Assembly: GCA_964384905.1 (NCBI GenBank)
Contig: CAYLND010000002.1
Span: 669-64,668 of the forward strand
DNA length: 64,000 bases
Direction: 5' to 3'
Origin: an uncultured Acidobacteriota bacterium
GTDB lineage: Bacteria > Acidobacteriota > Polarisedimenticolia > Gp22-AA2
The position numbers and the translations under genes were made by a program. Below the pieces are notes generated by a model. The model was given only the letters and a program-made list of their open reading frames with translations. It was not told the DNA's origin and did not search any database. This document shows positions 8,810 to 55,082 of this stretch, one piece after another (within the stretch, counting starts at the first letter, position 1; every line of letters begins with the position of its first letter).

Positions 8810-9014
8810 ACGACGAGGGAATGGCCGGAACCGGGAAGAGGGTCAGGGGCGGGCCCTCAACAAAATCCCGCGGCGCTGGTCCGCCCCGGGTTCTCTCGAG
8901 AGCCCGCCCTTGGACTGCGTGCTGCGCTGCGGGCTTTCTGACGGGATAGTCAGCCCGAGCGCGCCTGCGCCGGGAGACGATCGCTCCCGAGCAGGCGACG
9001 GCGTCGGAAGAGAC

Positions 9015-9149
9015 CTACGCCGCGCGATACCTTCTCTGCAGCTTCTTGAAGGCAGAGACCAGCCGGGCGTGCCGCTTCCGAGCCTGCACGGCCTGCCGAA
9101 AAGCCTGCCTCATCTTCGCCTGCAGCTTCCTGCGTGTTCTCTTGGTCAT
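9015..9149 (-). CDS. very basic 44-aa protein (MTKRTRRKLQAKMRQAFRQAVQARKRHARLVSAFKKLQRRYRAA), function unknown
   Basis: AGGAGG RBS 6 nt before the second ATG. Highly K/R-rich helical peptide. Divergent from the histidine kinase gene. Whether it is a real gene is uncertain. Confidence 0.3.
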   Translation of the reverse strand: MTKRTRRKLQAKMRQAFRQAVQARKRHARLVSAFKKLQRRYRAA

Positions 9150-9356
9150 CATCCACCTCCTGCCCGGAACATAATTCCCTGTGCAACCGGAGTCCAGCAT
9201 CCGGGCACTCGACGCAGCCGGGTCGTGGTCATGGAGAGTTGCAAAGGGGTCAAGGAGCGGAAAAGAGTCAAATTTCCGACACGGCGGAGAACAGGCTGGC
9301 GCGGGATCACTCGAACCGGTGTCCGTGCTTGACCTCGAAGACGGGTCTCATCGATC

Positions 9357-17933: not shown

Positions 17934-18111
17934 TCGAGGTCGAATGTTTCGCGCGTCTCGACGCGCCGCGCATAAATTGCGCCGCGCTTGTGGTCCGGAT
18001 GGCGAAGGGAGCGACGGATTGAGGTCGTCACGCGCAGGGCATGAGGATTGCAGTGGCGAGCGATCGATGAGGGAGCGAATGGACAAGCCCCTATCCTCGA
18101 GAGACCACTCC

Positions 18112-19071
18112 ATGTCGAGAGCACCGATACGCATGATTCTCGGCTTCGCGGCGGTGTCCGTCATCGTGCCGGCAGGGTGCGCCGTCTCGATCGCGTCGGA
18201 GCAGGCGACGCAGCAGGTCACCGAGACGAAGACAAAGACGGCCGCCGGATCGGGGTACGCCGAGCCGGGCGCCTGCGCCGCCTGCCACGAGGCGGAGGCG
18301 GCGGCACTCGCGGCGACCAGGCACGGCAAGACCGGGAAGACCAACTGGGAGGGTGCGGCCGGCTGCGAGGCCTGTCACGGTCCCGGCGCGGCGCACGTGG
18401 AGGCGGGGGGCACGAAGGAGACGATCCGCAATCCGGCGACGCTTCCCGCCACCGAGCTCAGCGCCGTCTGCCTGAGCTGCCACGAGCGCGGCGATCAGTC
18501 GCACTGGAGCGGCAGCGCGCACGAGGGACGCGGTCTTGCGTGCACCTCCTGCCACAGCATCCATCACTCCGCCTCGCCGACGACCAAGCTTCTCCTCAAG
18601 AAGACCGAGTTCGAGACCTGCACGTCATGCCACCTGAAGCGGAAGGCGTCGCTCTATCGCTCCGCCCACATGCCGATGCGGGAGGGTCAGGTCACCTGCA
18701 CCTCCTGTCACAACCCGCACGGCAGCAACGGGCCGTCGATGCTGAAGCAGTTCTCGGTCAACGAGAACTGCTACGCCTGCCACGCGGAGAGACGGGCGCC
18801 GATGCTCTGGGAGCATCCACCGGTCAAGGAGAGCTGCACCAACTGCCACGATCCCCATGGGTCGCTGCACCCGCGACTGCTGATCGCCAAGGTCCCGCGT
18901 CTGTGCCAGCAGTGCCACGACGAGACGCGCCACCCGACGCAGCCGTACTCGGACGCCTCGGTGGCGCCCGAGTTCTTTCCGAACAGCCGGATGTTCGACC
19001 GCGGCTGCGTGAACTGCCACTCGATGATCCACGGCTCGAACCATCCTTCGGGGATGCGATTCCTGAGATAG
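18112..19071 (+). CDS. periplasmic decaheme c-type cytochrome, MtrA/DmsE/PioA family
   Basis: Signal peptide and ten CxxCH motifs in ~320 aa, matching the MtrA-family spacing. The start is ambiguous (ATG 18067, 18079 or 18112). 18112 gives a canonical signal peptide with GAGAG 9 nt upstream. Confidence 0.8.
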   Translation: MSRAPIRMILGFAAVSVIVPAGCAVSIASEQATQQVTETKTKTAAGSGYAEPGACAACHEAEAAALAATRHGKTGKTNWEGAAGCEACHGPGAAHVEAGGTKETIRNPATLPATELSAVCLSCHERGDQSHWSGSAHEGRGLACTSCHSIHHSASPTTKLLLKKTEFETCTSCHLKRKASLYRSAHMPMREGQVTCTSCHNPHGSNGPSMLKQFSVNENCYACHAERRAPMLWEHPPVKESCTNCHDPHGSLHPRLLIAKVPRLCQQCHDETRHPTQPYSDASVAPEFFPNSRMFDRGCVNCHSMIHGSNHPSGMRFLR

Positions 19072-19082
19072 GAGGGACGGTC

Positions 19083-21461
19083 ATGACGTGGCGCGGCATC
19101 GCCATCGGACTCGTGATCGGAGCGTGCTTCTGGCCGTCGGTCGCGTCCGCCGCCGACAAGGAGCAGAAGGGGAGCGTCACGGGCGAGGCGCTGGTCGGGG
19201 TCACCGGTCAGGATCAGGACCCGGTCGACTCCGCCAAGTTCCACGAGTTCCGGGACGTGCCGAGCGGCTTCACCGCCGACCGCCTGTTCCTGAGCTGGAC
19301 GCCCAGGGAAGACTTCTTCTTCGATCTGCGCGCGGCCGACGTGTCGCAGCGCGACCAGAGGATCGGGGTGACGTTCGGCAGGACTGATCTCTGGCAAGGA
19401 TCGATGACATGGACGGAAAACCCCCGCCTCTGGACCGATCACGCCCGTCAGCTGTATGCCCGGCAGGCGGGAGCCGTGTTCACTCTCGACGACTCCCTGC
19501 AGTCGGCCATCCAGGGCGGCGCGGCGAACGTCGACGCGGACAGCAACGGTCAATGGGACGCCGGGACCAAGGGGGCGATCCTGAAGAGCGCCATCAACAG
19601 CTCCGCGCAGGAGATCCCCGTCGGGTGGCGCCGCGAGACGGGCGGCCTGGGATTCAGGCTGACCCCCGGACGTCACTGGACCTTCACCGCTTCCGGGCAG
19701 CGCGAGCGCCGCGCCGGCGCGATTCCGCAGTCGCTCGGGATGTACTTCGCGCTGTCGCCGAGCGAGGTCGCCGCGCCGCTCGATTACCGCACCGACTGGG
19801 AGTCGGTCGGGGCGGAGTACACCCGGCGAGGCTTCAACGCCGGCGTGCAGCTCACCGCCTCGCAGTTCGCGACCGGCTACGATTCGGTCACCTGGGACGA
19901 TCAGCTCTTCCTCAACGACACGGCGGTGAACGCCACGACGGCCGACCCGGCGCGCGGGCGCCTGTCCTCCGCCACCGGCAACCGGATGGCGCAGGGCACC
20001 CTGTTCGGCGGAGTCAACCTGCCGGCGCACACGCGCATCGACGCGACGGTGTCGCGCTCGCAGACGACGCAGGACGATCCGTTCCTGCCGACCACGACGA
20101 ACACCTTGCTGTCGCCGGCCGCCCTGCCGGCGACGAGCTACGACGGAAAGTACGACGTCGACTTCGCCTCGTTGAGGGTGTCGTCTCGGCCGACGAAGCT
20201 TCTGCGCTGGTCGGCCTGGGCCCGCGACTGGAAATACGACAACAAGTCGCCCGATCCGACCTTCGCCGACTATGTCATGACCGACTACCAGATCCCTCTC
20301 TGCCAGAACGCCAACGAGTGCGGCGCGACCACGAACCACATCGCTCGCCGCAGCCTGCCGTACGGCTGGCACCGCACGAACTTCGGAGGGTCCGCCGGCA
20401 TCCACCCGGTGTCCTGGCTGGACGGATCGCTCTCTCTCGAACGCGAGGACATCCGGCGCGATTTCAGCGCGGTCACGCGGAGCCACGACGACACGCTGAA
20501 GGTGACGCTCGATTTCGACGTCGCGGAGTGGCTCAGCATCAAGACGACTGCGCGCCGGCAGGAGCGGCGGGCCGACGACTACGACGCCGAGTACAACCTG
20601 GCGTCGTTTCCGATCGGCGAGGCGTTCGTGGCCGCCTCCAACGAAGGAGAGCGGCGCTTCATCTGGACCGACCGCGACCGCGATCAGTACAGTCTCCTCC
20701 TCGATTTCAACGCGACGAAGACGATTTCGATCTATGCCGAGACCACCTACACGCGGGATCTGTATCTCGATCCGAACACCGGAAAGCACATCGGGGATTC
20801 GTTCACCGTCCAGGAGGATCGCAACTTCGATACGGTTCCCGAGACCATCGACCTGCTCCTGGCGGGCCGGACCGACGACAAATACCTGTCCTACACGCTC
20901 GGGTTCGGCATCGCGCCCGGTCCGCGCTTCAGTCTCTACGCCGACTACACCTGGGAGGACAGCACCTACGGTCTCGAGAGCCGCTTCCGCACGCCCGTGT
21001 CCGGCATCGGCTCCGACAATCCGCTGGACAACTGGGGCGCCGACACGGACGACAGGTACAAGACCGCCACGCTCGGCTTCTCGGCAGATCCGTCGGGGGA
21101 CGCACGCTGGAAGATCGACGTCGACGCCTCCCGCTCGGAAGGGACCGGCAGGATCGCCAACCATTTCGTGCCCGGCGGGAACGCTTCCTCGGACACCACT
21201 CTCCTCGAATTCCCTCTCCTGAAGACGACGCTGACGATCGCGCAGGTGGGTTTCACGCGGACAATCAACAAGAGCCTCGACTACTCCGTTCGCTACTGGT
21301 ATGAGTCGTGGCACGAGGACAACTTCGCGAGCGATTTTTCACAGCCTTACATGGGGGATCCTGGAAACGATCCGGGGTCGGGGACTTCGATCTTTCTGGG
21401 CCTGGATTTCGCGAACTACACGAACCATCTCCTGACCTTCTTCATGCACTATCGGTTCTAG
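19083..21461 (+). CDS. decaheme-associated outer-membrane beta-barrel porin, MtrB/PioB family
   Basis: GGAGGG RBS, signal peptide, ~790-aa beta-rich protein ending in aromatic residues (FMHYRF). Sits 12 nt downstream of the MtrA-like gene, as in mtrAB/pioAB/mtoAB loci. Confidence 0.8.
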   Translation: MTWRGIAIGLVIGACFWPSVASAADKEQKGSVTGEALVGVTGQDQDPVDSAKFHEFRDVPSGFTADRLFLSWTPREDFFFDLRAADVSQRDQRIGVTFGRTDLWQGSMTWTENPRLWTDHARQLYARQAGAVFTLDDSLQSAIQGGAANVDADSNGQWDAGTKGAILKSAINSSAQEIPVGWRRETGGLGFRLTPGRHWTFTASGQRERRAGAIPQSLGMYFALSPSEVAAPLDYRTDWESVGAEYTRRGFNAGVQLTASQFATGYDSVTWDDQLFLNDTAVNATTADPARGRLSSATGNRMAQGTLFGGVNLPAHTRIDATVSRSQTTQDDPFLPTTTNTLLSPAALPATSYDGKYDVDFASLRVSSRPTKLLRWSAWARDWKYDNKSPDPTFADYVMTDYQIPLCQNANECGATTNHIARRSLPYGWHRTNFGGSAGIHPVSWLDGSLSLEREDIRRDFSAVTRSHDDTLKVTLDFDVAEWLSIKTTARRQERRADDYDAEYNLASFPIGEAFVAASNEGERRFIWTDRDRDQYSLLLDFNATKTISIYAETTYTRDLYLDPNTGKHIGDSFTVQEDRNFDTVPETIDLLLAGRTDDKYLSYTLGFGIAPGPRFSLYADYTWEDSTYGLESRFRTPVSGIGSDNPLDNWGADTDDRYKTATLGFSADPSGDARWKIDVDASRSEGTGRIANHFVPGGNASSDTTLLEFPLLKTTLTIAQVGFTRTINKSLDYSVRYWYESWHEDNFASDFSQPYMGDPGNDPGSGTSIFLGLDFANYTNHLLTFFMHYRF

Positions 21462-21495
21462 GCGCATACCTGAAGCGCATGGAGGACGTCTGACC

Positions 21496-23811
21496 ATGCC
21501 CGAACAGGATCAGGCACACGCGGGGCTCTCTCCGTGGTGGCGGCACGCCGCCATCCTGGTGATGATCTTCGGGTTCACCGTCCTGACCATCGTCACGGTC
21601 AGGACCTATACCAACGCGCCGCCGATACCGGCGGTCGTCGTCGATCAATCCGGGGCCCCGCTGTTCGGGCGGGCGGACATCGAGCACGGCCAGGAGGTCT
21701 TTTTCAAGTACGGGTTGATGGAGCACGGGACCCTCTGGGGGCATGGCGCCTACCTGGGCCCCGACTACAGCGCCGAGTACCTGCATCGTCTTGCGGAGAT
21801 CACGCGCGACACGCTGGCGACCTCGCGGTACGGTGTCGCGTACGCCGATCTGCAGCCTGCCGCGGCCAGCGACGTGAACGAGGCGGCCCGGCGCGAGCTG
21901 AAGGAGAATCGCTACGACGACGGGAAGGACAGGCTGACCTTCTCGCCCGGAGAGTCGGCGGCTTTCGCCGTCCAGAAGACGGAGTGGCACGACTATTTCG
22001 CGGGTCGCACGCCGGCACCCGGCTTGCCGGCCAACTACATCGGGAACACGGACGAGCTGGCGGCGCTGACCGCTTATTTCGCCTGGGCCGCTTGGGCGGC
22101 GGTCGCGAACCGTCCCGGCAAGGACTATTCCTACACCAACAACTGGCCGTACGACCCGGCGGCGGGCAACACGCCGAGCGCCTCGACCTATCTCTGGAGC
22201 GGGCTGAGTCTCGTCACGCTGCTCTCCGGTCTCGGTCTCGTCCTGTTCGTGTTCGGCAAGTTCGACTATCTCGGGTGGCGCGGCGAGAAGGGCACGGACC
22301 ACACGCACGGCAGCAACCTTCTCGGCTGGCGGACGACCCCGAGCCAGCGGGTCACCGCTCTCTACTTCGTGGTCGTGGCCCTGCTCTTCCTGCTCCAGAC
22401 GCTCGCCGGCGGCGCCCTGGCGCACTATCGGGTCGAGTCGGGCGCGTTCTACGGGCTCGATCTGGCGCGTTTTCTGCCGTACAACCTGCTGCGCACCTGG
22501 CACCTGCAGCTGGCGATCTTCTGGATCGCAACCGCCTGGGTGGCGGGCGGGCTGTTCCTGGCGCCGATCGTCGGAGGCGGCGAGCCACGAGGCCAGAGGG
22601 CCGGTGTGGTGATCCTCCTCGGCGCCCTCGCGGTCGTCGTCTTCGGGAGTCTCGCCGGCGAATACCTCGGGATCAACGGCCGGCTCGGCGGGCTCTGGTT
22701 CTGGCTGGGGCATCAGGGCTCGGAATATCTCGACCTCGGCCGCTTCTGGCAGCTCCTTCTGGCGGTCGGCCTCGTCCTGTGGCTGGTGCTGATGTTCCGC
22801 GCCTTGCGCCCGGCGATGAAGCGAGGCGGTCGGGACTCGCTGGCGGCGCTTTTTCTCTACGCCGCGGTGGCCATCCCGGTCTTCTACCTGCCCGCGCTGT
22901 TCTACGGACCGCACACCAACTACGCGGTCATCGACAACTGGAGGTTCTGGATCATCCATCTCTGGGTGGAGGGGTTCTTCGAGCTGTTCGCCACGGTGCT
23001 GGTCGCCGTCATCTTCTTACAGATGGGGCTGGTGAGCGCGCGCACGGCGACGCGCCTGGTCTACCTCGACGCCATTCTCTATCTGGGCGCGGGCGTCATC
23101 GGCACCGGACACCACTGGTACTTCACCGGCCAGGGGACGCTCAACATGGGTCTGGCGGCCTGCTTCTCCGCCATGGAAGTGGTGCCGCTGACGCTCCTGA
23201 CGCTGGACGCGTGGGACTTCGTCCGGCTCAAGGATCGGCGCTGCGACGATTGCGGGAAGCCGTTCGCCGCGCGCCAGAAGTGGGCGATCTACTTCCTGAT
23301 GGCGGTCGGATTCTGGAACTTCGTCGGGGCGGGCGTGTTCGGCTTCCTGATCAACCTGCCGATCATCTCGTATTTCGAGATCGGAACGGTGCTGACCAGC
23401 AACCATGGGCACACCGCCATGTTCGGCGTGTTCGGCATGCTGGCGCTGGGCGTTCTGGTGTTCTGCCTGCGCGCCCTGACGGACGACGAACGGTGGGCCC
23501 GCAGCGAGCCGCTGGTGCGGGTCGGCTTCTGGGGGCTCAACGCGGGTCTGGCGCTGATGGTGCTCCTGGACCTTTTCCCCGCCGGGGTCGTTCAGCTCTG
23601 GGACTCGTTGGAGAACGGCTACTGGCACGCTCGGCGGCTCTCGTTCACCATGACCGGTATCTTCCACACCCTCGAATGGCTGCGAATGGGCGCCGACCTC
23701 TGTTTCCTGCTCGCGGGCGTCGTCCCGCTCGTCGCCGCGACCCTGCGCGCCGCAATCGGCGGCCGCATCGAATCGGGCGCCCTGCCTGCCTCGGCGACCC
23801 ATCCTCGCTGA
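21496..23811 (+). CDS. norZ: quinol-dependent nitric-oxide reductase large subunit (qNOR)
   Basis: 771 aa with an N-terminal extension carrying the qNOR-type ...VFFKYGLMEHGTLWGHGAYLGPD motif, 12+ TM helices, and heme-copper/NOR catalytic motifs HLWVEGFFE and GHHWYF. Confidence 0.85.
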   Translation: MPEQDQAHAGLSPWWRHAAILVMIFGFTVLTIVTVRTYTNAPPIPAVVVDQSGAPLFGRADIEHGQEVFFKYGLMEHGTLWGHGAYLGPDYSAEYLHRLAEITRDTLATSRYGVAYADLQPAAASDVNEAARRELKENRYDDGKDRLTFSPGESAAFAVQKTEWHDYFAGRTPAPGLPANYIGNTDELAALTAYFAWAAWAAVANRPGKDYSYTNNWPYDPAAGNTPSASTYLWSGLSLVTLLSGLGLVLFVFGKFDYLGWRGEKGTDHTHGSNLLGWRTTPSQRVTALYFVVVALLFLLQTLAGGALAHYRVESGAFYGLDLARFLPYNLLRTWHLQLAIFWIATAWVAGGLFLAPIVGGGEPRGQRAGVVILLGALAVVVFGSLAGEYLGINGRLGGLWFWLGHQGSEYLDLGRFWQLLLAVGLVLWLVLMFRALRPAMKRGGRDSLAALFLYAAVAIPVFYLPALFYGPHTNYAVIDNWRFWIIHLWVEGFFELFATVLVAVIFLQMGLVSARTATRLVYLDAILYLGAGVIGTGHHWYFTGQGTLNMGLAACFSAMEVVPLTLLTLDAWDFVRLKDRRCDDCGKPFAARQKWAIYFLMAVGFWNFVGAGVFGFLINLPIISYFEIGTVLTSNHGHTAMFGVFGMLALGVLVFCLRALTDDERWARSEPLVRVGFWGLNAGLALMVLLDLFPAGVVQLWDSLENGYWHARRLSFTMTGIFHTLEWLRMGADLCFLLAGVVPLVAATLRAAIGGRIESGALPASATHPR

Positions 23812-23875
23812 CGACCTGCGGCAGCCGTGATTCCGGCTCCCGACATTGCGCGGCCGCGACCCGGACCTATATTTG

Positions 23876-25651
<1,776 letters not shown>

Positions 25652-28484: not shown

Positions 28485-29132
28485 GTGAAAACCTCATACC
28501 GCCTGTTGAGTGCAGGTCTCGTCGGGTTTGTCTGCCTGGCGGCGGCGCCGGCCGCCCCGGAGCAGGATCGGGACGCGGCGCCGGCGGAGAGCCCGCCCGA
28601 CGCGGGCAAGCAGGGGCCCGGCGTCGCCAAGCAGATCTTTCCCACGGAGATGCAGTATCGCATCGGCGTCGAGGATGTCCTGCTCGTCTCGGTCTGGAGG
28701 GACGCGGATCTGACCCGCGAGGTCCCGGTCCGGCCGGACGGCAAGATCTCGCTCCCCCTGATTCAGGACATCGTCGCTGCCGGGAAGACACCCGCGGACC
28801 TCGGGCAGGAGATTCAAGTCCGGCTCAAGGAGTACATGAGCAACCCGTCCGTGACCGTCATCGTCAGGGAGATCAACAGCATCAAGATCTATCTCCTCGG
28901 GGAGGTGGCTCGACCTGGGCCGGTCATGCCGAAGACGCAGATCCGTCTGCTCCAGGCGATCGCCATGGCCGGAGGGCTCACCCCGTTCGGAGGCAAGAAA
29001 AACATCGTCGTCTTTCGCAAGACCCCTTCGGGGGAGAAGGTCATCGAGGTGTCGTACCAGAACATCGTCTCCGGAAAGAAGCCGGACGACGACCTGATCC
29101 TCGAATCGGGCGACACGGTCGTGGTCCGCTGA
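28485..29132 (+). CDS. polysaccharide export outer-membrane protein (Wza/Poly_export + SLBB)
   Basis: Lipoprotein/secreted N-terminus, Poly_export motif region (IGVEDVLLVSVW...PVRPDGKISLPLI) and a C-terminal SLBB-like region (GDTVVV). Confidence 0.8.
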   Translation: MKTSYRLLSAGLVGFVCLAAAPAAPEQDRDAAPAESPPDAGKQGPGVAKQIFPTEMQYRIGVEDVLLVSVWRDADLTREVPVRPDGKISLPLIQDIVAAGKTPADLGQEIQVRLKEYMSNPSVTVIVREINSIKIYLLGEVARPGPVMPKTQIRLLQAIAMAGGLTPFGGKKNIVVFRKTPSGEKVIEVSYQNIVSGKKPDDDLILESGDTVVVR

Positions 29133-29282: not shown

Positions 29283-31367
29283 GTGACGTACCGTCTTCGC
29301 GATCTCGGCTGGGACATTCGGAAGGCCATGTCCCTCTCGCCGGGCGAAGGCGTGCGCCGGCTCTCGGGGCGAGCGGTGCGCTACGCCCGGCGTGTCCGAT
29401 ATCGCAGCCGCGCGACCCACCTGAGCGATGCGGACCTGCTGCGTTCCCTGGCGTCCCCGGCCCCATCGGTCGAGGAGCTGGTCGCGCGGCGCCTGGAGGG
29501 CGCGCCCCTGGTGCCCGCGGCTCTGTGCGGCGCCGCCAGCGCTGACAGACTTCGAAGAACGGCACCCGCATCCTGCGAGGCGATCCTGGCGGCGGGGCGG
29601 GCCCTCATGAATGGAGACTTCGACCTTCTCGGATCCGGTCCGGTCCGCCTCGGTCCCGAACCCGACTGGCACTGTGACTTCAAATCCGGCAAGCGCTGGG
29701 ACCGCGGAGTGTATTCCCTCGACATCACCCAGACGCCGAATCGTGGGCACGATTGCAAGGTCCCCTGGGAAATCTCCCGGCTGCAGCATCTCCCGATCCT
29801 GGGCATGGCCTCGTGGCTCGGCGGCGACGTCGCGTTCCGGGAGCGGGCCGTGTCCCACGTCGCCTCGTTCGTCGCGGGCAACCCGGCCTATCGCGGCATC
29901 AACTGGAATTGCACCATGGATGTGGCCATACGCGCGGCGCAGATTCTGGCCTCCGAGGGGTTCCTGCGCGGGGCGGGCGACGATCGGTTCTGGGCCGCGC
30001 TTCTCAAATCCCTGCTCCTGCACGCCCGCTTCATCCGCGACAATCTGGAGAACGGTCCGGTCCGCGGGAATCACTATGTGTCCAACCTCGCCGGGCTGTT
30101 CCTCTGCGGTCTGGGCCTGACGGAGTTCCGGGAGGCCCCGAAGTGGAGGGAGTACGCCCGGGTCAGGCTCCTCGCCGAGATGCGGCGACAGGTCACTCCG
30201 GACGGGCTGGATTACGAGGCCTCGCTCTCCTATCACGCGTTCGTCACGGAAATGTTCCTGTTCCCCGCGCTTCTGGAGTCCGAGCGCGGCGGCTCGTTCG
30301 GCACGCCGTACCTCGAGGGGTTGAGGTCGATGATCGAGGCCGTGGCGATCCTCATGCGCCCCGACGGGACGCTGCCGCAGATCGGTGACAACGACGACGG
30401 TCGGTTCCTGATCTTCTCGCAATACCGTCGCACGCGTCGTGACTGGAGGCCGCTTCTGGTCCTCGGCGCGTATCTGTTCCGCCAGCCGAAGTGGCTCCCG
30501 CTCGCGGGCGACGCCTGGGTGGAGGGCGTGTGGGTCCTGGGCGAGCCGTTCGTCCGCTGGCGCGACTCGCTGCCGCCGGTCGATCCGCCCGCCGGCTTCT
30601 CGAGCCGCGCCTTTCCCGAGGGAGGCATCTACCAGCTGGGCGCCGGCAGCGTCCAGATGGTGGTGGACGCCGGGGGCGTCGGCCAGAGGAACAACGGCAG
30701 CCACGCCCACAACGACACTCTGGCGTTCGACCTGTATGCCTTTGGCCGCGAGATCCTTCCCGATCGGGGCACCGGCGCCTACACCTCGGACCTGACGATG
30801 CGCGACGGCTTTCGCTCCACGCGGGCGCACAATGCGCTGCAGGTCGACGGCCAGGAGATGAATCCGTTCGCGGAAGAGCCGTTCCGGCTGATCCCGGCCG
30901 ATCACCCCCGGGTGCTGCGCTGGCGTGCGGGAAGGCGGTACGTCTATCTGCGCGGCGAGCATTCGGGCTACCGGCGGCTGCCCGCGGCAGTCGTGCATCG
31001 CCGAAGCATCCTGCTGGATCGCCGGACCGGGACCTTCTGGATCGAGGATCGGCTGGAGGGGCGCGGCCGGCACCGATTCGTGGCCAGTTTTCATCTTGCG
31101 CCAGGCTGGACAGTCGAGTCCCGGCAGGACGGATGGACGGCTCGCGGCTCCGAAGGAGGGGTGATCCTCAGCGTCCTGTGGACAGCGCGTCCCGAGCTCT
31201 GCCGGACACGCGTGGAGGAGGATCTCCATTCGCCCTCCTATGGCGTCACCCAGAGTGCCCGAACGGTGCGTTTGGAATGGGAAGGCCCGGTGCCTTGCAG
31301 GCTGCGCTACAGGCTCACCGTGCTCGAGCAGAAGGACGTGCAAGGGGGAACGACCCCGGGCAGATGA
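29283..31367 (+). CDS. heparinase II/III-like (polysaccharide lyase-like) protein
   Basis: 694-aa protein with the layout typical of heparinase II/III-family proteins in EPS loci (alpha/alpha toroid region followed by a beta-sandwich; ...HAHNDTLAFDLYAFGREILPDRGTGAY...). Confidence 0.65.
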   Translation: MTYRLRDLGWDIRKAMSLSPGEGVRRLSGRAVRYARRVRYRSRATHLSDADLLRSLASPAPSVEELVARRLEGAPLVPAALCGAASADRLRRTAPASCEAILAAGRALMNGDFDLLGSGPVRLGPEPDWHCDFKSGKRWDRGVYSLDITQTPNRGHDCKVPWEISRLQHLPILGMASWLGGDVAFRERAVSHVASFVAGNPAYRGINWNCTMDVAIRAAQILASEGFLRGAGDDRFWAALLKSLLLHARFIRDNLENGPVRGNHYVSNLAGLFLCGLGLTEFREAPKWREYARVRLLAEMRRQVTPDGLDYEASLSYHAFVTEMFLFPALLESERGGSFGTPYLEGLRSMIEAVAILMRPDGTLPQIGDNDDGRFLIFSQYRRTRRDWRPLLVLGAYLFRQPKWLPLAGDAWVEGVWVLGEPFVRWRDSLPPVDPPAGFSSRAFPEGGIYQLGAGSVQMVVDAGGVGQRNNGSHAHNDTLAFDLYAFGREILPDRGTGAYTSDLTMRDGFRSTRAHNALQVDGQEMNPFAEEPFRLIPADHPRVLRWRAGRRYVYLRGEHSGYRRLPAAVVHRRSILLDRRTGTFWIEDRLEGRGRHRFVASFHLAPGWTVESRQDGWTARGSEGGVILSVLWTARPELCRTRVEEDLHSPSYGVTQSARTVRLEWEGPVPCRLRYRLTVLEQKDVQGGTTPGR

Positions 31368-31481
31368 GACGCAGGCGCGATCGCCGTTGTGCGATTTTTG
31401 CGCACCGTCCATCTGGTGCACACGCGCGTTACCATACTGTGAAAAGTGAGAGTTAACGGCTTCACGCCTTGAGATTTGCCC

Positions 31482-31509
31482 TTGACACCCCGCTGGATTC
31501 CAGTATATT
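31482..31509 (+). promoter_or_regulatory. candidate sigma-70 promoter TTGACA-N16-TATATT
   Basis: Exact -35 TTGACA (31482-31487) and near-consensus -10 TATATT (31504-31509) with a 16-nt spacer. Located in a low-GC 600-bp intergenic region. Confidence 0.4.
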
Positions 31510-31966
31510 CGACGCAATCTCGAAAGGTTCTCTGATCCCCTGCAAGGGGTTGGTGGGGGCGATCAAGTAGTAGGGTGGACTTTCGGAAAACCCTTCCGCG
31601 AGGTCAGTGCTTCCGAGATTAGTGAGAGGTCATACGCTTCGTGTCGCTTCCGGTCGGGATACAGGAATTGTCTATCAGAATTACGGATTCATTGATATCT
31701 CTAGTAACATTTTTGTGTCTGGTTCAAATAACTGCGGTCCGATTCAAGATGCTTGCGAAATCGCCAGTCCGAAAGCCCGAAGCACGGGGTCGCCGTGTCG
31801 ACACATTTCGATCCACGGCCGTCTCCGTCTGGCACGGCAGCTTCCGGGTTGTCGGGAACAGTGCCGAGCGAAACTCCCGGTGTCTCCGTAAGCGGAATTT
31901 GATCATCACAGGCGGGATCGAAGTATGGATCCCTCCCTTTGACCCGGGCGACACGGTTGTCCTACC
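31510..31966 (+). promoter_or_regulatory. long low-GC structured 5' leader; candidate cis-regulatory RNA or antiterminator loading site
   Basis: About 450 nt between the promoter and the next CDS, at roughly 45-50% GC against about 68% for the window. Several stem-loops are visible (CCCCTGCAAGGGG; CCGTG..N16..CACGG; GGCAC..N23..GTGCC). The ORFs within it show no RBS. Confidence 0.3.
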
Positions 31967-33169
31967 GTGACGTCAAGAAGACCGGTTGTTCCCGCCGCAG
32001 GACGGCGGGTCCTGATACTGCTCCTCGGGACCTGCTTCATTCCCACACTGCCGATCCGCGCCCAGGTCCCCGCCGTGACCGGGCCGACACGCGGCGAGCT
32101 CAAGCTCAGCCTGGGTCTCGGCGGCGGGTACACCAGCAATGCGGCTCTGCGCTCCGACGCAGCGGCCTCGGGCGATTCCATCGCGAATCTTCGCGCCGAT
32201 CTCTCCGAACGTAAGACCAGCGCGCGAACCGACTGGTCGGCCTCCTACGATTCCTTCTACACGAGTTACGGCACCAACAACCAGTTCGACAGCCTCAATC
32301 ACGCCGTCAACTTCGACGGACGCTACCTGGTCACGAGCCGGAGCCACCTCGCGCTCTTCGAGCACTTCTTCTACAGCCGCAATCCTCTTCAGATTGCGAG
32401 CACGACGCCGACCACCGAGACGGTCATTCTGACCCAGCAGACCCACCGCTGGCGGAGCGTCTCCGACGTGGGGTTCGACACCAGTCTGTCCCGGTCGTTG
32501 ACCCTGCTGGCCGGTGTGACGTCCCGGATCGAGCGGATCGATCTGCGCCCGTCCGTCGACACCGACACGTATTCCGGTCGCCTCGGGATCCAGAAGCAGA
32601 TCGGCAAGAAGGACAGCATCGCATCCAGCTACGCCTACTCGCGATTCGACTTTCACGACGCGACGATCCCGAACTCCGCAGCCAATGGAGTGGACGCGTC
32701 GTGGACGCACGGCGCGCCGGCCGGTCCGGCCTGCACGTTGTCCGCCGGCGTGTCGAAGGTCACGCGGGAGGGGGCCAGCCAGAATCTGGTGGTGGCCGCG
32801 GCGAGTCTGCACCATCCGTTTCGTCGGCTCGATTTCGTGTCGGATTACCGCCGAAGCCTGATGGCCGACATCGGAGTCGCGACCCTCACGGTGGCGCAGA
32901 ACGCCAGTGCCGGCATCTCCGGAACGGTCGGGCGCTCGTCCACGCTCGGCGTGTTCGCGGAGTACGGAACCCGCGAGTCGGTCCTGGACACGGGAGACCG
33001 ACAGGCGCTCCGGTACACCGGCGGCGCCGTGCGCGGCTCGATCGCGCTCAATCCATGGCTGAGCCTTTCAGGCGAGGCGCGGCGGCGCAAGCAGATCGGT
33101 CTCGAGGGCACGGTGGAGGATCTGACGGTCGACACGGTCTTCATGAATCTGGTCTTTCAGGTCTTCTGA
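31967..33169 (+). CDS. outer-membrane beta-barrel protein, function unknown (EPS-locus associated)
   Basis: Signal peptide (RRVLILLLGTCFIPTLPIRAQ), alternating amphipathic beta pattern and a C-terminal Phe (LVFQVF). GTG start. Confidence 0.55.
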   Translation: MTSRRPVVPAAGRRVLILLLGTCFIPTLPIRAQVPAVTGPTRGELKLSLGLGGGYTSNAALRSDAAASGDSIANLRADLSERKTSARTDWSASYDSFYTSYGTNNQFDSLNHAVNFDGRYLVTSRSHLALFEHFFYSRNPLQIASTTPTTETVILTQQTHRWRSVSDVGFDTSLSRSLTLLAGVTSRIERIDLRPSVDTDTYSGRLGIQKQIGKKDSIASSYAYSRFDFHDATIPNSAANGVDASWTHGAPAGPACTLSAGVSKVTREGASQNLVVAAASLHHPFRRLDFVSDYRRSLMADIGVATLTVAQNASAGISGTVGRSSTLGVFAEYGTRESVLDTGDRQALRYTGGAVRGSIALNPWLSLSGEARRRKQIGLEGTVEDLTVDTVFMNLVFQVF

Positions 33170-33203
33170 TTCGAAGCCGCCCGGGTCCCCTGGCGGGGAC
33201 CTG

Positions 33204-33728
33204 ATGAAAGGACAGTCGATGCTCTGGTACGCGATCCAGACGAAGCCGAACAAAGAGAGCGCGGTGCGCGCGACCCTGGACCAGGAGGGGATCGAGGTCT
33301 ATTGCCCGCGCATCCGGAGACCCCTCCGTGGCGTGCGGGGTGCGTGGAAGGAGGCGGCCCTTTTTCCCGGCTACCTGTTCGCCCGTTTCGACTTCGTCCG
33401 GGATTACGCGCGGCTGCGTTGGAAACCGGGGCTGGTCAGAGTGGTGATGAGCGGCGCAACGCCCCTGGTGGTCACGGAAGCGACCCTGGGGTCGGTCCGG
33501 CAGATGGAGAAAGAGGGAATCCGTGGACTGTTCCGGCCGGTCCAATGGAAACCGGGGACCCCGGTGCGTGTGACCGAAGGCCCTTTCAGTGGGTTCGAGG
33601 GACGGGTCGACATGACCCTCAGGGGTGGCGACAGAGTTCGCATCTTGCTCGAGCTTTTCCGGCGGCAGGCCGCTCTGGAGTGCGCTCCCGAGTCGATCCA
33701 GCCGCTGGCTTCTGCAGGCGGTCGATAG
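33204..33728 (+). CDS. NusG-paralog transcription antiterminator (RfaH/UpxY-like) with a KOW domain
   Basis: N-terminal NGN pattern (LWYAIQTKPNKESAVRATLDQEGIEVYCPRI...FPGYLFARF) and a C-terminal KOW-like region (GTPVRVTEGPFSGFEGRV). Confidence 0.75.
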   Translation: MKGQSMLWYAIQTKPNKESAVRATLDQEGIEVYCPRIRRPLRGVRGAWKEAALFPGYLFARFDFVRDYARLRWKPGLVRVVMSGATPLVVTEATLGSVRQMEKEGIRGLFRPVQWKPGTPVRVTEGPFSGFEGRVDMTLRGGDRVRILLELFRRQAALECAPESIQPLASAGGR

Positions 33729-33758: not shown

Positions 33759-34424
33759 ATGGGGAGCAAGAGGCTCTCGATGGCGGAGCTCCATCCGGTG
33801 ATGAACGGCACAGAGACGACGACCACGATGCCCGTGTCCATGACTGCGCCACCGAAGGCGGTTCCACAGATCGGCGGAGCTGGTCCCTTGTGGCGTAGCC
33901 TGCTTTTCCCGTGCAACGGCCAGCGGGCGGTTGAATTCGGCAGCAACGGCACCAGTCTGTTCGCTTCGCTGCGCCAGGCAGGAGTCCGGATCGAGCCGGG
34001 CCAGCCTGACGAGGGAAAGATCGCGGAGCTCACCTTCGACCTGGTCCTGGAAGATCGAACGAACGGCAACCGGCCCGTCCGAACCGAGCGGGCCCGGTCG
34101 CTCCTGGATCGTGGCGGTCGATGGGTCGTGGCCCTGGAGAGAAAACGCTGGATCGGTCTGGCGCGTCGGCGGGTCATGGGACGACTCCGTCGCGGCGGCT
34201 TCGAGGCGGTCGAGACCTTCTACGCCTACCCGTCGCTGCGGGCGCCGCGCATGCTGGTGCCGCTCGATCGGCCGGGGCCATTCCAATACTTCCTGGGTCT
34301 CGCGACCGGTGTGCGCGGGCCGCGCCAGCGCCTGCTGGCACTGAGCGCCCGCTGTCTGTGCGCCGTGCGTCTGCACCACCTGTTTCTGTCCAACCTGATC
34401 GTGGTGGCACGGAAGGCTCGATGA
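33759..34424 (+). CDS. hypothetical protein (221 aa), translationally coupled to the downstream kinase-like gene
   Basis: Only coherent frame in this interval. Stop overlaps the next ATG (ATGA). No motif recognised; the start is uncertain. Confidence 0.4.
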   Translation: MGSKRLSMAELHPVMNGTETTTTMPVSMTAPPKAVPQIGGAGPLWRSLLFPCNGQRAVEFGSNGTSLFASLRQAGVRIEPGQPDEGKIAELTFDLVLEDRTNGNRPVRTERARSLLDRGGRWVVALERKRWIGLARRRVMGRLRRGGFEAVETFYAYPSLRAPRMLVPLDRPGPFQYFLGLATGVRGPRQRLLALSARCLCAVRLHHLFLSNLIVVARKAR

Positions 34425-35440
34425 TCGACGCGCTGTCCGAGACCTACAAGGAGCTGGCGGCCGAGGCGATGGGGCTGCCACGCCACAAGATCTCGGTGTT
34501 GATGGTGCACCGCCCGCACGACGACAAGAACTACGCCGATCAGTCGGTGTACTTCTTCTTCCTCCCGCGCGAGCGGTTTCCTTCGGCGGTCGGGAAGGTG
34601 GGGTTCGATGCGGCCGGCGCCCACTACCTCGAAAGAGAGCACCGAGGCCTCCTGTCGCTGAGCCGGCACGGTCAGACGCTCCCCGCGGCATCGGTGCCGC
34701 GTCTTCTCCTCTACCGGGAAGTGGCCGGACGTCAGGTGCTGCTGCAGAGCGCGCTGCGTGGCGAAAAAGTCTCGACCTGGCTGACACCTGGCATGCGGCT
34801 CAATGGACGCCTCGAGCGCTTCCTCGCCTGGGCCGCGGACTGGAGCTCCGCGCTCGGGCGCGCCACCCGAATCGATGGACCGGCGCTGGTACCGGGCTGG
34901 ATCGAAGAGTTCTGCGTGAAGCTGGACCGGACGAATCGCTCTCAGGCGCTCCTGGACAAGGCGGCGAAAACGGTGTGGGACGGGTTCGGGCAGGCGTTCC
35001 CGACCGTCCTCGCCCACGGCGACTTCTGCGGCGAGAACATCCTGGGCGACGGCGAGCGTTACGGTGTGATCGATTGGGAGCTTTGCGACGAGGTGTCGGT
35101 CCCGACCTACGACATCCTGGATCTCTGCCTGTGGGTCGCGCTGCGGACCGAAGGGCACGTGGTGCCGGATCCCTTCACCGCGCTCGAGAGACTTCTGAAC
35201 GGACGCGACCCGCTGGCACGCGAGCTGCGTCGCACGCTGGGTCGATACACTGCGGCGATGGGCCTCGAGCGGAAACTCCTGCCGCCGCTCCTGACCATTG
35301 CCTGGGCCGGTCATTGCCTGAAGAAGTTCCGCCACCTGCAGAGGGACGAGACCGGACACTTCGCGCGCGCCCGGGTCGCGGTGCGCAAGATCCTCGATAC
35401 GCCCGCCGAGATCCTCTCGGGAGAACGCGAGGCGGGATGA
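34421..35440 (+). CDS. phosphotransferase enzyme family (APH/choline-kinase-like) protein
   Basis: Kinase-like fold motifs (HGDFCGENIL...IDWELC; Brenner motif and DxD). Confidence 0.7.
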   Translation: MIDALSETYKELAAEAMGLPRHKISVLMVHRPHDDKNYADQSVYFFFLPRERFPSAVGKVGFDAAGAHYLEREHRGLLSLSRHGQTLPAASVPRLLLYREVAGRQVLLQSALRGEKVSTWLTPGMRLNGRLERFLAWAADWSSALGRATRIDGPALVPGWIEEFCVKLDRTNRSQALLDKAAKTVWDGFGQAFPTVLAHGDFCGENILGDGERYGVIDWELCDEVSVPTYDILDLCLWVALRTEGHVVPDPFTALERLLNGRDPLARELRRTLGRYTAAMGLERKLLPPLLTIAWAGHCLKKFRHLQRDETGHFARARVAVRKILDTPAEILSGEREAG

Positions 35441-52132: not shown

Positions 52133-53349
52133 AGATCACGGTCCTCTGCGGGCGGTATCCCTATTCCGGGGCCGGCGTCATCGCGCGCGAGTCGGCCGAG
52201 GAGCTGGCGCGCCGGCACGAGGTGACCTTCGTCCACGGTGGGGACGCGGACTTCGATCGTCGCGAGGGAGCGCTGCGGGTGATCTCCCTGGCGCTGCCTC
52301 CCGCGGAGGAGCAAGGGATCTCCCACCTGTACTGGAGCCCCGCGATCCTGCGCCGGCTCCGCCAGACGCTCCGCGAGGTCAATTCCGATCTGATCCACTT
52401 CCATATCATCCAGCGCCGCAGCTTCTCGCTGGCGTCGCTTCTCCTGTCGCGGAGCCGGCGGGCCTTCTGGACGATCCACGATCAATGGCCGCTGTGCGTC
52501 CGCTCGGTCCCGGAGCCGCCGGGCTGCGAGGGGATGAAGCGGTTCTGCCTGTTCTGCACCGCCTGGCCGGGGTTCTCCGTCGCCAACAAGGTGATCAAGG
52601 AAGCGGTCTTCGCGGCCTCCCGGGTGGAGGTGGTGGTGCCGTCTCGCTGGCTCGGCGACCTGCTCCGCCGCTCGTTCCTCGGGCGCAAGCGGGTGCACCT
52701 GGTCTACAACGGAATCGACCTGAATCTCTTCCGCCCGGGCGCGGGAGCGATCGACGGCGGGGAGAAACGACCGCCGACGGTTCTCTACGTGGCGGGTCCG
52801 AACGATCCCACCAAAGGGATCGCCGACCTCCTGCCCGCCTTCCTGGCGCTCCGGGAGAGGTATCGAGGGCTCCGCCTGCGGGTGGTCGGTGATCCGCCCG
52901 GCGGGCTCGCCGGCGCGGAAGGCGTCGAGCTCGCCGGTCGTGTGCCGCGGGAGGAGATGCCGGACGAGTACCGGCGCTGCGATCTCTTCGTGCTCCCCAC
53001 GCTCTCCGACAACACGCCGGTCACCCTGATGGAGGCGATGGCGTCCGGCCTGCCGGCCGTGGCGACGGCGGTGGGCGGCATTCCGGAGCTGGTGACTCCC
53101 GGAGTCACCGGCCGTCTGGTCCCGCCGGGCGATCGTCCGGCGCTGGCGGCGGCGATGGAGGGCCTCCTGGCGGACCACGGCGCGCGGCGGCGGATGGGCG
53201 CGGCGGGCAGGAAGGTCGCGGAGGCGCGATTCGCGCGACAACGCATGGTTTCGGAGCTGGAGGACATTTACGGCGTGGCTCGCGGGCGGTCGCGCGATGC
53301 GGAGCGCGTGCCCGGCATGCCGGCACCTGCTTGTGGAGGTCAACGATGA
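52129..53349 (+). CDS. glycosyltransferase family 4 (GT-B, group 1)
   Basis: GT4 C-terminal pattern (CDLFVLPTLSDNTPVTLMEAMASGLPAVATAVGGIPE). GTGA overlap. Confidence 0.8.
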   Translation: MKITVLCGRYPYSGAGVIARESAEELARRHEVTFVHGGDADFDRREGALRVISLALPPAEEQGISHLYWSPAILRRLRQTLREVNSDLIHFHIIQRRSFSLASLLLSRSRRAFWTIHDQWPLCVRSVPEPPGCEGMKRFCLFCTAWPGFSVANKVIKEAVFAASRVEVVVPSRWLGDLLRRSFLGRKRVHLVYNGIDLNLFRPGAGAIDGGEKRPPTVLYVAGPNDPTKGIADLLPAFLALRERYRGLRLRVVGDPPGGLAGAEGVELAGRVPREEMPDEYRRCDLFVLPTLSDNTPVTLMEAMASGLPAVATAVGGIPELVTPGVTGRLVPPGDRPALAAAMEGLLADHGARRRMGAAGRKVAEARFARQRMVSELEDIYGVARGRSRDAERVPGMPAPACGGQR

Positions 53350-55082
53350 AAGCGGTGATTCTCGCCGGCGGCCGGGACACACATCTGGTGCCGCTGGTGC
53401 GGACGATGCCCAAGCCGCTCCTGCCGGTGGCCAATCGCCCGATGGTGGAGTACCTTCTGGATCTCCTGAAGGACAACGGCATCCGTGAGGTCGCCCTCAC
53501 CATCAACGAGGACGCCGATCGGTACGAGGAGGTTCTCGGTGACGGCCGCCGGCTCGGGATGCGGCTGCATTACTCGCGCGAGACCGTCCCGAGCGGCACG
53601 GCGGGATGCCTGCTCCCCCTGGCCGATTTCCTCGGGCGCAAGCCGTTCCTCGTCATCCACGGGAGTCTGTTCCTGAACGCCGATCTGAAGGGGCTGATCG
53701 ACTCCCACCGGCTCCGCAGGGCGGTCGCCACCCTGGGCGTCCGCAGGACGTCCGGCGGCTCGCGTGACTGGCATCAGCTGGAATTGCGACTCGGGGAAGG
53801 GGACCGCGTCGAGGGGATCAAGGTTCACGATCTCTCCGATCGCGGGCGGCATGCCCCCGTGCCGGCGGGCGTGTACATGTTCGATCCGGCGGTCCTGGGC
53901 TCGATCGAGCCGGGGATCTACTACGACATCAAGGAGCAGCTGCTGCCCCGGCTGCGTCAGGAAGGGAAGCCGGTGTTCGCCTGCGAGATCCAGGGCTACT
54001 GCCGGAACGTTCTGGAGATGAACGACTACCTGAAAGTCAATCGGTCCGTTCTGCGTGCGGAGGTGAACGGATACCGCTTCGAGGGCCAGATCGCCGACGG
54101 CATCTGGGTTGGACGGGGAAGCGACGTCTCGCCGCAGGCGACCCTCCTCGGACCGGTGATGATCGGACGGGACTGCGTCATCGGGCCCGGCGTCCAGATC
54201 ATCGGCCCCACCTGCATCGGAGACGGTTGTCTGGTGGAGGAGGGGGCCCTGTTGAGGGAGAGCCTGCTGCATCCCGGAGCCCGGGTGGAGCAGAATTCCA
54301 GGGTCGAGGGGTGCGTCCTGACCGCGGACACCGTGGTTACCTCGGGCCAGGCCTTGCGGGAGGTGGTGACGATCCCGGAAGGGCTGGACGTGGGCGAGCT
54401 CGACCTGGCCGACGCCGAGCTGCTGATCCAGGGAGTGGCGGCGTCCGCCGGCCGGTACGCGCAGAGTCATCTGCGCTACCTGCTCTATCGCACGTGCAAG
54501 CGCGGGCTCGATCTGGCGGCGGCGCTGGCCGGTCTGGTCGTGCTATCGCCCTTGTTCGTCGCGGTGGCTCTCGCCATCAGGATGACGAGCCCCGGTCCGG
54601 TCTTCTTCCGGCAAAGGCGGTGCGGTCGCCACGGGCGCGAGTTCATGATGGTCAAGTTCCGCACCATGGTGAAGGACGCCGAGAACATGCAGGCGCAGCT
54701 CCGACCGCTCAACGAAGTGGACGGGCCCGTCTTCAAGATGGAGAACGATCCGCGCTCCACGACCCTCGGGCGTTTCATGCGCAAGTACAGCATCGACGAG
54801 ATGCCGCAGCTCTGGAACGTCCTGAAAGGTGAGATGAGCCTGGTCGGCCCCCGGCCCCTGGCCGCCAAGGAGATGCGGTTCTGCTCCGCCTGGCGCGACG
54901 TGCGGCTGAAGGTCCGTCCGGGAATCACCGGTCTGTGGCAGATCAGCGGCCGAAGCAAGAGCTCGTTCCACGATTGGATCCGCCTGGACATCGAATATGT
55001 CCAGGAGCGATCCCTGTTCCGGGATCTGCAGATACTCTTCAAGACTCTCAGCGTCGTCATCCGGGCGCTGGGGTCTTTCTGA
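53346..55082 (+). CDS. bifunctional fusion of a sugar-1-phosphate nucleotidylyltransferase (with LbH domain) and a polyprenyl-phosphate glycosylphosphotransferase (bacterial sugar transferase domain)
   Basis: The N-terminus reads MKAVILAGGRDTHLVPLVRTMPKPLLPVANRPMVEY (NTP_transferase G-x-G-T-R-L-like), followed by hexapeptide repeats. The C-terminal ~200 aa have one TM helix and the WbaP/WcaJ-type sugar transferase pattern (KRGLDLAAALAGLVVLSPLF...KFRTM...DE.PQLWNVLKGEMSLVGPRP). ATGA overlap. Confidence 0.75.
   Translation: MKAVILAGGRDTHLVPLVRTMPKPLLPVANRPMVEYLLDLLKDNGIREVALTINEDADRYEEVLGDGRRLGMRLHYSRETVPSGTAGCLLPLADFLGRKPFLVIHGSLFLNADLKGLIDSHRLRRAVATLGVRRTSGGSRDWHQLELRLGEGDRVEGIKVHDLSDRGRHAPVPAGVYMFDPAVLGSIEPGIYYDIKEQLLPRLRQEGKPVFACEIQGYCRNVLEMNDYLKVNRSVLRAEVNGYRFEGQIADGIWVGRGSDVSPQATLLGPVMIGRDCVIGPGVQIIGPTCIGDGCLVEEGALLRESLLHPGARVEQNSRVEGCVLTADTVVTSGQALREVVTIPEGLDVGELDLADAELLIQGVAASAGRYAQSHLRYLLYRTCKRGLDLAAALAGLVVLSPLFVAVALAIRMTSPGPVFFRQRRCGRHGREFMMVKFRTMVKDAENMQAQLRPLNEVDGPVFKMENDPRSTTLGRFMRKYSIDEMPQLWNVLKGEMSLVGPRPLAAKEMRFCSAWRDVRLKVRPGITGLWQISGRSKSSFHDWIRLDIEYVQERSLFRDLQILFKTLSVVIRALGSF

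Follow-up and report, generated by a model that had tools for sequence, protein, structure and literature searches.

The region described here lies in a 64,000-nucleotide (nt) stretch of contig CAYLND010000002.1 from an uncultured Acidobacteriota bacterium, which we refer to as the window, and comprises an intergenic gap, the exopolysaccharide (EPS) operon that follows it and the gene that precedes it. The gap (31368-31966, + strand) measures 599 nt from the stop of a heparinase II/III-like gene at 31367 to the GTG start, at 31967, of the next large coding sequence, in agreement with the 600 bp given by an initial annotation made from the sequence alone. This coding sequence (31967-33169, + strand) is the first intact gene of the operon and encodes a 400-residue outer-membrane (OM) protein with a signal peptide and a C-terminal ...VFQVF. 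The gene immediately behind it, and not the second one downstream as had been stated, codes for a specialised NusG paralogue with NGN and KOW domains (33204-33728, + strand), after which the + strand EPS genes continue to at least 63551. Within the gap we recognize a sigma-70-type promoter and a leader of three parts, namely a sequence-conserved block of about 150 nt, a poorly conserved AT-rich segment, and the relic of a Wza-type export gene that still forms an open reading frame (ORF). The earlier picture of a promoter and long leader heading a polysaccharide operon with a specialised NusG paralogue is thus supported, as is the presence of a long polysaccharide gene set downstream.

For comparison we retrieved 20 related loci from genome and metagenome collections by aligning homologues of the OM protein, and a further 14 by exact-protein look-up. 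The relatives are metagenome-assembled genomes labelled Acidobacteria gp22, Polarisedimenticolia, Binatia or Dormibacteraeota, or contigs from soil metagenomes. Group 1 consists of 14 sequences (the window, L001, L002, L004, L005, L009, L010, L015, L016, L018, L021, L023, L024 and L029) that display the gene order Poly_export - heparinase - gap - OM - NusG paralogue - unknown - APH - flippase; the Poly_export-heparinase order of the window is encountered in L021-L024. Group 2 (L003, L012, L013, L025-L028 and L032, with the more distant L030 and L033 being similar) lacks the heparinase gene; here the non-coding region is separated from the OM gene by an intact Poly_export gene alone, which codes for 197-252 residues. 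With few exceptions the related loci have the paralogue gene right behind the OM gene, and all of them keep the succession from the paralogue through the unknown and APH genes to the flippase. In L030 (6274-6498) and L033 (3715-3975) a small HTH_17 (excisionase/MerR-like) gene is situated between the OM gene and the paralogue. A further variant is L031 (768-2767), in which two minus-strand genes (DUF2304 and GT2) are inserted behind the heparinase gene; this locus is equipped with a TTGACA-N17-TATGTT promoter of its own, with a leader of about 700 nt that bears no sequence relation to that of the window, and with a short ORF with a signal-peptide-like N-terminus right before the OM gene.

The promoter (31482-31509, + strand) consists of a -35 element TTGACA (31482-31487), a 16-nt spacer and a -10 element TATATT (31504-31509), and it agrees with the consensus at 11 of 12 positions. 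It sits exactly where it had initially been annotated, and is the sole match with at most one mismatch to TTGACA-N16-TATAAT in the 64 kb, where shuffled sequences give an expectation of 0.01; the N17 version of the consensus has zero matches in the 64 kb at the same tolerance. The form TTGAC(A/T)-N16-(G)TATA(T/C)T is kept in hexamers and spacing alike in all 14 group-1 sequences, i.e. the window and 13 others. A counterpart, CTTGACC..GTATATAA, occupies the equivalent position ahead of wza in group-2 loci, and L030, L031 and L033 possess TTGACA-type promoters before leaders of 600-700 nt. By these sequence criteria, uniqueness and conservation in orthologous loci, the promoter is real. The conservation extends about 60 nt further 5' in 14 of 14 group-1 sequences, with the segment from -100 to -10 showing 62-85% identity to the window. 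It includes an operator-like imperfect palindrome TTACCATACTGTGAAAA (31429-31445), centered about 79 nt 5' of the predicted transcription start, whose position is constant in all group-1 loci and which is perfect in L023 (GATATCCACAGTGTGGATATC, about 4557-4577) and L015 (TTTCCACAGGTGTGGAAA, about 5400-5420). Between the palindrome and the -35 element lies a conserved block (31446-31481, + strand) that reads AGTTAA ... CACGCCTTGAGATTTGCCC in alignments of 10-14 loci. Two candidate sigma-54 promoters in the leader, TGGCACGGCAGCTTCC at about 31830 and TGGTTCAAATAACTGC at about 31721, were rejected by eye, with no formal scan, on account of a wrong spacing or -12 element.

Downstream of the promoter, identity across loci and the alignment of the 14 leaders delimit a sequence-conserved block of about 150 nt (31514-31660, + strand). 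This block begins with a near-invariant AATCTCGAA, contains GAGGTCAGTGCTT(A/C)CGAGAT around 31602-31621, and includes a direct repeat GAGGTCA...GAGGTC. The first 150 transcribed nucleotides show 59-88% identity to the window, which is on par with the OM coding sequence (71-84%). A small protein encoded in the block was considered and rejected, as no reading frame is kept between loci. The remaining 3' untranslated part of the leader (31661-31748, + strand) is AT-rich and poorly conserved (54-69% identity to the window, close to background), with a conserved CATTTT run. These observations support purifying selection on part of the leader, and they indicate that the block 31514-31660 is constrained at the level of primary sequence, its fold being not convincingly conserved.

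The length of the 5' untranslated region and the conservation of its first 150 nt could also be expected of a structured riboregulator, i.e. a cyclic di-GMP (c-di-GMP) or other riboswitch, a JUMPstart-like element or an attenuator that gates read-through into the EPS operon. The initial annotation had described the leader as hairpin-rich and had suggested such an element. Small local hairpins can be drawn in it, with one pair alternating between GU, CG and UA (columns 26-35 of the alignment), and a conserved U-run is present at about +195. However, a search with Rfam 15 recovered zero families at gathering score in the 64-kb window, and even at E<=10 the segment 31000-34200 yielded chance-level matches to sX5, PyrR206 and Virus-PTE alone (17-18 bits), so that the scan for GEMM, JUMPstart and other leaders that had been recommended returned nothing. 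The minimum free energy of 31516-31990 is -169.3 kcal/mol, compared with -164.2 +/- 6.2 kcal/mol for shuffled versions (z = -0.82; 20 of 100 shuffles as good), and the leader is therefore no richer in hairpins than expected by chance. On the 14 available sequences, a number that limits the power of any structure or covariation test, RNAalifold produced a consensus of -12 kcal/mol over 253 columns with an unfavourable covariation term of +0.77 and a double change in 3 of 26 pairs. Four hand-picked hairpins fared no better, with 81% of cells paired against 78% in shuffled alignments and 5 double-change pairs against 4.0; the third of these helices does not form in the window sequence. The U-run lacks a conserved preceding hairpin, and a consensus scan detected zero terminator-like sites on the + strand of 31510-31966. 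An attenuator hairpin before the conserved CATTTT run was likewise rejected, as a good hairpin was present in L002 alone with no consensus among the loci, and locus-by-locus folds of 31661-31748 range from 0 to -11.6 kcal/mol with no common structure. The alignment of orthologous leaders, which had been proposed as a check, thus bears out conservation of the 5' block in sequence and reveals negligible covariation, and a structured riboregulator appears improbable. Group-2 leaders (L003 at about 2755-2790, and the equivalent positions in L012, L013, L025, L027 and L028) share a hairpin of their own, GAGAC(A/T)TCAGAG - TATCA - CTCTG..GTCTC, with apparently compensatory changes, as judged by eye, from A-T in L003 to T-A in L027.

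Sequence conservation without covariation would also be displayed by a binding site, either a DNA operator for a repressor or activator, acting together with the palindrome, or an RNA target of a small RNA, a CsrA-like protein or an RNase. The direct repeat within the block and the obvious operator-like palindrome upstream are both in line with such a site, as is the fact that no motif is held in common with group-2 leaders even though the group-2 paralogues are 50-70% identical. A profile of the group-1 leaders likewise matched the promoter alone in group 2 when searched with nhmmer, and no second copy was found in the window. On the other hand, no regulator gene is consistently linked to these loci, the HTH_17 gene being found in L030 and L033 only. 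A further binding partner would, moreover, be compatible with loading of the NusG paralogue in the same block, and the leaders of UpxY systems are also known to vary with the cognate pair (PMC11685472). We hold binding of some other factor in place of the paralogue to be the less likely reading.

The final 222 nt of what had been annotated as a leader of about 450 nt prove to be a conserved open frame of 73 codons (31749-31970, + strand), which runs from ATG to TGA and whose stop overlaps the OM start as GTGA. This frame is open in 14 of 14 group-1 loci, at lengths of 43-93 codons, and the other five frames carry stops. Its ATG lies 233-240 nt behind the -10 element, and at the other end every group-1 locus has a GTGA or ATGA overlap between its TGA and the OM start. 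The sequence within the frame has an identity of 47-65% to the window, which is near background. Between the window and L005 the differences at codon positions 1, 2 and 3 number 14, 18 and 13 in the ORF as against 24, 19 and 47 in the OM gene, and between L002 and L010 they number 17, 15 and 20 as against 24, 25 and 55. The two- to threefold excess at third positions seen in the OM gene, which served as control, is thus absent from the ORF, and this even spread over the three codon positions shows that the peptide is unconstrained.

The origin of the frame is indicated by the ORF of L015, which aligns to the intact Wza of L003 over the N-terminal Poly_export region and the extreme C-terminus (E 1e-10). 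The window ORF retains the motifs VSVW and, at its C-terminus, DPGDTVVL, in the same order as in Wza, and in group 2 an intact Poly_export gene occupies the very same position. Taken together these observations identify the ORF as an in-frame-deleted, decaying remnant of wza. No relic peptide reaches threshold with any Pfam model, including Poly_export (PF02563); as the homology is pairwise only, we file the ORF as a relic and not as a member of the Wza family. It might alternatively encode a functional small protein, given that the frame is open in 14 loci with its ATG at about 233-240 nt from the -10 element and its stop overlapping the next gene, and that one gene caller annotated a 79-residue product in L024. 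Such a protein would nevertheless be expected to show the codon-position bias of the adjacent OM gene in place of equal differences at all three positions, and neither the variation in length with large internal deletions and locally shifted frames (e.g. L004 versus L001), nor the near-background identity, nor the failure to match Pfam is readily reconciled with it. We therefore give this alternative little weight. In this clade an intact Wza-type export gene with Poly_export and SLBB domains (28485-29132, + strand) is situated on the 5' side of the heparinase gene; it scores 143.7 bits with TIGR03027 (pepcterm_export), short of the cut-off of 180, and 133 bits with EpsY.

The string GGCGGGATCGAA at about 31910 had been singled out as an imperfect ops-like recruitment site for the paralogue. 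It does have GGCGG in common with the ops element of E. coli (GGCGGTAGCGTG) and lies upstream of the OM gene. It differs from the 12-mer by 4 mismatches, though, and falls inside the relic ORF. Among the other loci only L005, the closest relative, retains it; L010 has an altered version, and in most of the rest a deletion of at least 33 nt has removed it. At up to 3 mismatches, ops strings occur at background frequency in the window (140 matches against 125 +/- 10 expected), with zero in 31368-31966. We rejected this candidate, and a role for it as a loading site is hardly conceivable in view of its lack of conservation.

In group 1 the OM gene starts without a Shine-Dalgarno (SD) element. Its predicted duplex with the anti-Shine-Dalgarno sequence amounts to about -3 kcal/mol in group 1, compared with -10 to -12 kcal/mol in several group-2 loci. 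The OM start lacks an SD element only where it overlaps the relic; in the group-2 loci that possess one, the genes do not overlap. We read the overlap of stop and start as probable translational coupling from the relic ORF to the OM gene. The OM protein itself gives a weak match to TIGR03016, a model of PEP-CTERM-associated OM proteins (31.7 bits against a cut-off of 90.85, over the N-terminal 70 residues only), and none of 37 homologues has a Pfam domain. In several loci (L009, 5430-6010; L021, 4640-5000; also L014, L016 and L029) the interval from the relic ORF to the intact OM gene holds a fragment of the OM N-terminus, comprising the signal peptide and first strands, along with degenerate sequence of 300-560 nt, which suggests a partial duplication or an insertion.

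The NusG paralogue had been correctly recognized. Its likely start is the second ATG at 33219, from which the database copy of 169 residues also begins. The NGN domain (PF02357) scores 55.3 bits, above the gathering threshold of 22.2, whereas the KOW motif (PF00467) scores 20.2 bits against a threshold of 22.3, with a precomputed KOW match present in several homologues. Among the NCBIfam models, UpxY (NF033644; 72.9 bits, cut-off 100), RfaH (TIGR01955; 72.4 bits, cut-off 144.5), NusG (53.5 bits, cut-off 135.7) and LoaP (NF033641; 42.5 bits, cut-off 125) all fall short of their cut-offs. A profile of the paralogue family recovers RfaH as its best solved relative (93.5 bits), ahead of the best NusG (74 bits). 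An AlphaFold2 model (mean predicted local distance difference test score, pLDDT, of 78) displays an NGN domain and a beta-barrel KOW, i.e. a five-stranded C-terminal beta domain with a pLDDT of 57-79, and matches NusG and activated RfaH in the Protein Data Bank.

These features can be assembled into a scenario for the head of the operon. The operator-like palindrome and the conserved upstream block would be followed by transcription from the near-consensus sigma-70 promoter, starting near 31516. Within the first ~150 nt (31514-31660) a signal, be it a pause, an element in the non-template DNA or the RNA, or a combination of these, would allow the NusG paralogue of the operon to load onto RNA polymerase, and this loading would render transcription processive over the following ~30 kb. 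As the paralogue is encoded inside the operon, a positive-feedback loop would follow. Next comes the short, AT-rich and apparently unconstrained spacer, and then the 73-codon remnant of wza, the intact copy of which is now situated 5' of the heparinase gene. The remnant would have been retained as a translated ramp, by which ribosomes reach the OM gene through termination and reinitiation and the leader is kept covered with ribosomes; it might have remained translatable for the very reason that the OM gene is initiated by ribosomes that have terminated at GTGA. Both RfaH and UpxY are loaded at pauses within leader sequences (PMC7819879; PMC11685472), and RfaH targets are without SD elements, RfaH-type factors being reported to support translation of SD-less genes (PMC7819879). 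That the paralogue might render the same support at the relic ORF is a speculation by analogy.

Several points weigh against this scenario. The transcription start near A31516 is a prediction from the promoter, and the extent of the operon is likewise predicted. Loading of the paralogue at 31514-31660 is plausible by analogy with the known factors. A consensus elemental pause (G-10, Y-1, G+1) common to all 14 leaders was not found, nor was any such pause in the leader of the window, and the only k-mer that group-1, group-2 and L030 leaders have in common is, weakly, a start-proximal AATCTCGA-like string. The beta-barrel KOW of the model gives no indication of RfaH-style autoinhibition, although a predicted structure cannot settle whether the fold is metamorphic, with an RfaH-type alpha-helical as opposed to a beta KOW. 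The relic ORF has no SD element of its own, and in the window and L005 its ATG does not lie at quite the same position as in the remaining loci. Selection for openness of the frame is argued from the low chance of an open frame across about eight lineages, which shuffling puts at 0.06-0.16 per locus and a neutral simulation at 0.2 substitutions per site, ignoring indels and tree structure, at 0.25-0.45 per lineage; given the non-independence of the loci, common descent might account for part of this openness. On balance, we place the probability that the region is the promoter and composite leader of a Wzx/Wzy-type, PEP-CTERM-like EPS operon, with paralogue loading and coupling as proposed, at roughly 60%.

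A bolder version, which we regard as less likely than not, is that 31514-31660 is the loading signal of an undescribed clade of operon-embedded NusG paralogues in Acidobacteriota-like bacteria with a recognition unlike that of ops, and that the paralogue, in the manner of RfaH, also recruits ribosomes to the SD-less relic. If this were true, a dead wza gene would have found a new use as a translated ramp, tying together transcription, translation and the synthesis of the OM protein where the EPS operon begins. The arrangement as such is fairly ordinary, with no sign of a riboswitch or of a new kind of system. It is modestly unusual in its sequence-conserved yet apparently unstructured 150-nt block and in the preservation of a relic wza frame before an SD-less gene; the latter provides a tidy example of a decayed gene that has kept its frame and not its sequence. 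Polysaccharide operons that encode a NusG-like processivity factor of their own are well known from Enterobacteria and Bacteroides; for soil Acidobacteriota, the exopolysaccharides of which are of importance to soil aggregation, they have hardly been described. The present locus offers a conserved promoter with clear boundaries and a 150-nt block of leader on which loading of the paralogue can be directly tested.

The gap is also compositionally distinct, as had been noted initially. Its GC content is 0.49-0.55 (200-nt windows), far below the mean of 0.681 for the whole 64 kb (sd 0.035, 300-nt windows), and the segment 31301-32000, which goes down to 0.487, is the deepest of just three troughs below 0.58 at 300-nt resolution. 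We attribute this to the absence, in a 68%-GC genome, of the coding constraint that is reflected in a third-codon-position GC (GC3) of about 0.85. The two shallower troughs are at 21151-21550 (minimum 0.557), at the junction of an MtrB-like gene with the following ORF, and at 63651-63950 (minimum 0.563). The gap need not be the only extended non-coding stretch, as had been stated, since a crude GC3-based gene map shows others, such as one of ~550 nt at about 8810-9356 that has no low-GC signature. Right behind the heparinase stop, the consensus scan picked up a weak terminator-like hairpin with a T-run (31375-31392, + strand); with 2 such sites found against 2.2 expected it is not significant alone, and it is not kept in the locus alignment.

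The heparinase gene itself (29283-31367, + strand; Hepar_II_III_N E 6e-24 and Hepar_II_III_C E 3e-40 in Pfam) is the last of the upstream unit. Downstream, the EPS genes run on the + strand from 31967 to at least 63551 with many 4-nt overlaps, and those behind the paralogue (33759-63551) were identified by Pfam and NCBIfam matches as the remainder of an operon of roughly 30 kb. They code for a conserved 221-residue protein, an APH-like kinase, a Wzx-type flippase, methyltransferases, GT2 and GT4 glycosyltransferases, a deacetylase, radical-SAM enzymes, a priming sugar transferase, a Wzc-like chain-length/tyrosine kinase and an epimerase. The conserved protein (33759-34424; 212-221 residues across loci) and the APH-like kinase (34421-35440) follow the paralogue in every related locus; the former has no Pfam or NCBIfam match and could conceivably be a partner of the paralogue, as UpxZ is of UpxY. 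The longest ORF at 53331-55082 combines a sugar-1-phosphate nucleotidyltransferase domain (residues 6-350) with a polyprenyl glycosylphosphotransferase domain (residues 385-581), and may represent a true fusion or else two neighbouring genes that the ORF call ran together. Upstream of the EPS region are genes for a homologue of the MtrB/PioB-family decahaem-associated OM protein (18048-21461; 172 bits, below cut-off) and for a Ser/Thr protein kinase (23846-25651).

Of the known systems, the UpxY/opsX-controlled capsular polysaccharide operons of Bacteroides, reportedly described by Chatzidaki-Livanis in 2009, offer a close parallel in that a specialised NusG paralogue is encoded within the polysaccharide operon that it presumably controls. 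In both cases a promoter is followed by a leader whose sequence is clade-specific, and UpxY gives the paralogue its best NCBIfam score. UpxY leaders differ between cognate pairs (PMC11685472, Saba et al. 2024). The present system departs from UpxY in several respects: the score is under the cut-off, the phylum is Acidobacteriota-like, an invertible promoter is not evident, and neither a pause site, nor a non-template hairpin, nor a pause hairpin was identified in the window leader. Furthermore, upxY is the first gene and is followed by upxZ, whereas here the paralogue is encoded behind the OM gene and the wza gene or its relic, and no UpxZ-like partner was identified, the next gene coding for the 221-residue protein with no family match, which was not compared with UpxZ directly. 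RfaH, which acts through ops on lipopolysaccharide, capsule, haemolysin and F-pilus operons of Enterobacteria, resembles the present case in having a long surface-polysaccharide target with SD-less first genes, and among solved structures it comes nearest to the paralogue family (93.5 bits). In contrast to RfaH, which is encoded elsewhere, the paralogue resides in the operon and reaches 72.4 bits as against the 144.5 required by TIGR01955. The gap contains no ops 12-mer at up to 3 mismatches and no Rfam JUMPstart match, and, unlike free RfaH with its alpha-hairpin KOW, the paralogue is modelled, at moderate confidence, with a beta-barrel KOW.

In its content the operon resembles the XrtA/PEP-CTERM-type EPS loci that are said to have been delineated by Haft et al. 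in 2006. As in those loci, a TIGR03016-like OM protein accompanies a Wza-like exporter, and the chain-length/tyrosine kinase, the priming transferase and the stp-type glycosyltransferases match PEP-CTERM models best or near-best, the PEP-CTERM-associated models concerned being TIGR03007, TIGR03013, TIGR03016, TIGR03027 and TIGR03088. All scores here are under the equivalog cut-offs, and none of the roughly 30 window proteins scanned (about 20 with NCBIfam) is an exosortase (XrtA/EpsH), EpsI or PrsK/PrsR. To our knowledge, no NusG paralogue has been described as part of XrtA/PEP-CTERM EPS loci. Finally, the junction of relic and OM gene resembles translationally coupled overlapping genes of the ATGA/GTGA type and leader ORFs, in which an upstream stop overlaps an SD-less start and the ORF is kept while its peptide is unconstrained. 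It differs from dedicated leader peptides in that the upstream ORF, from which coupling is predicted, is demonstrably what is left of a once full-length wza gene.

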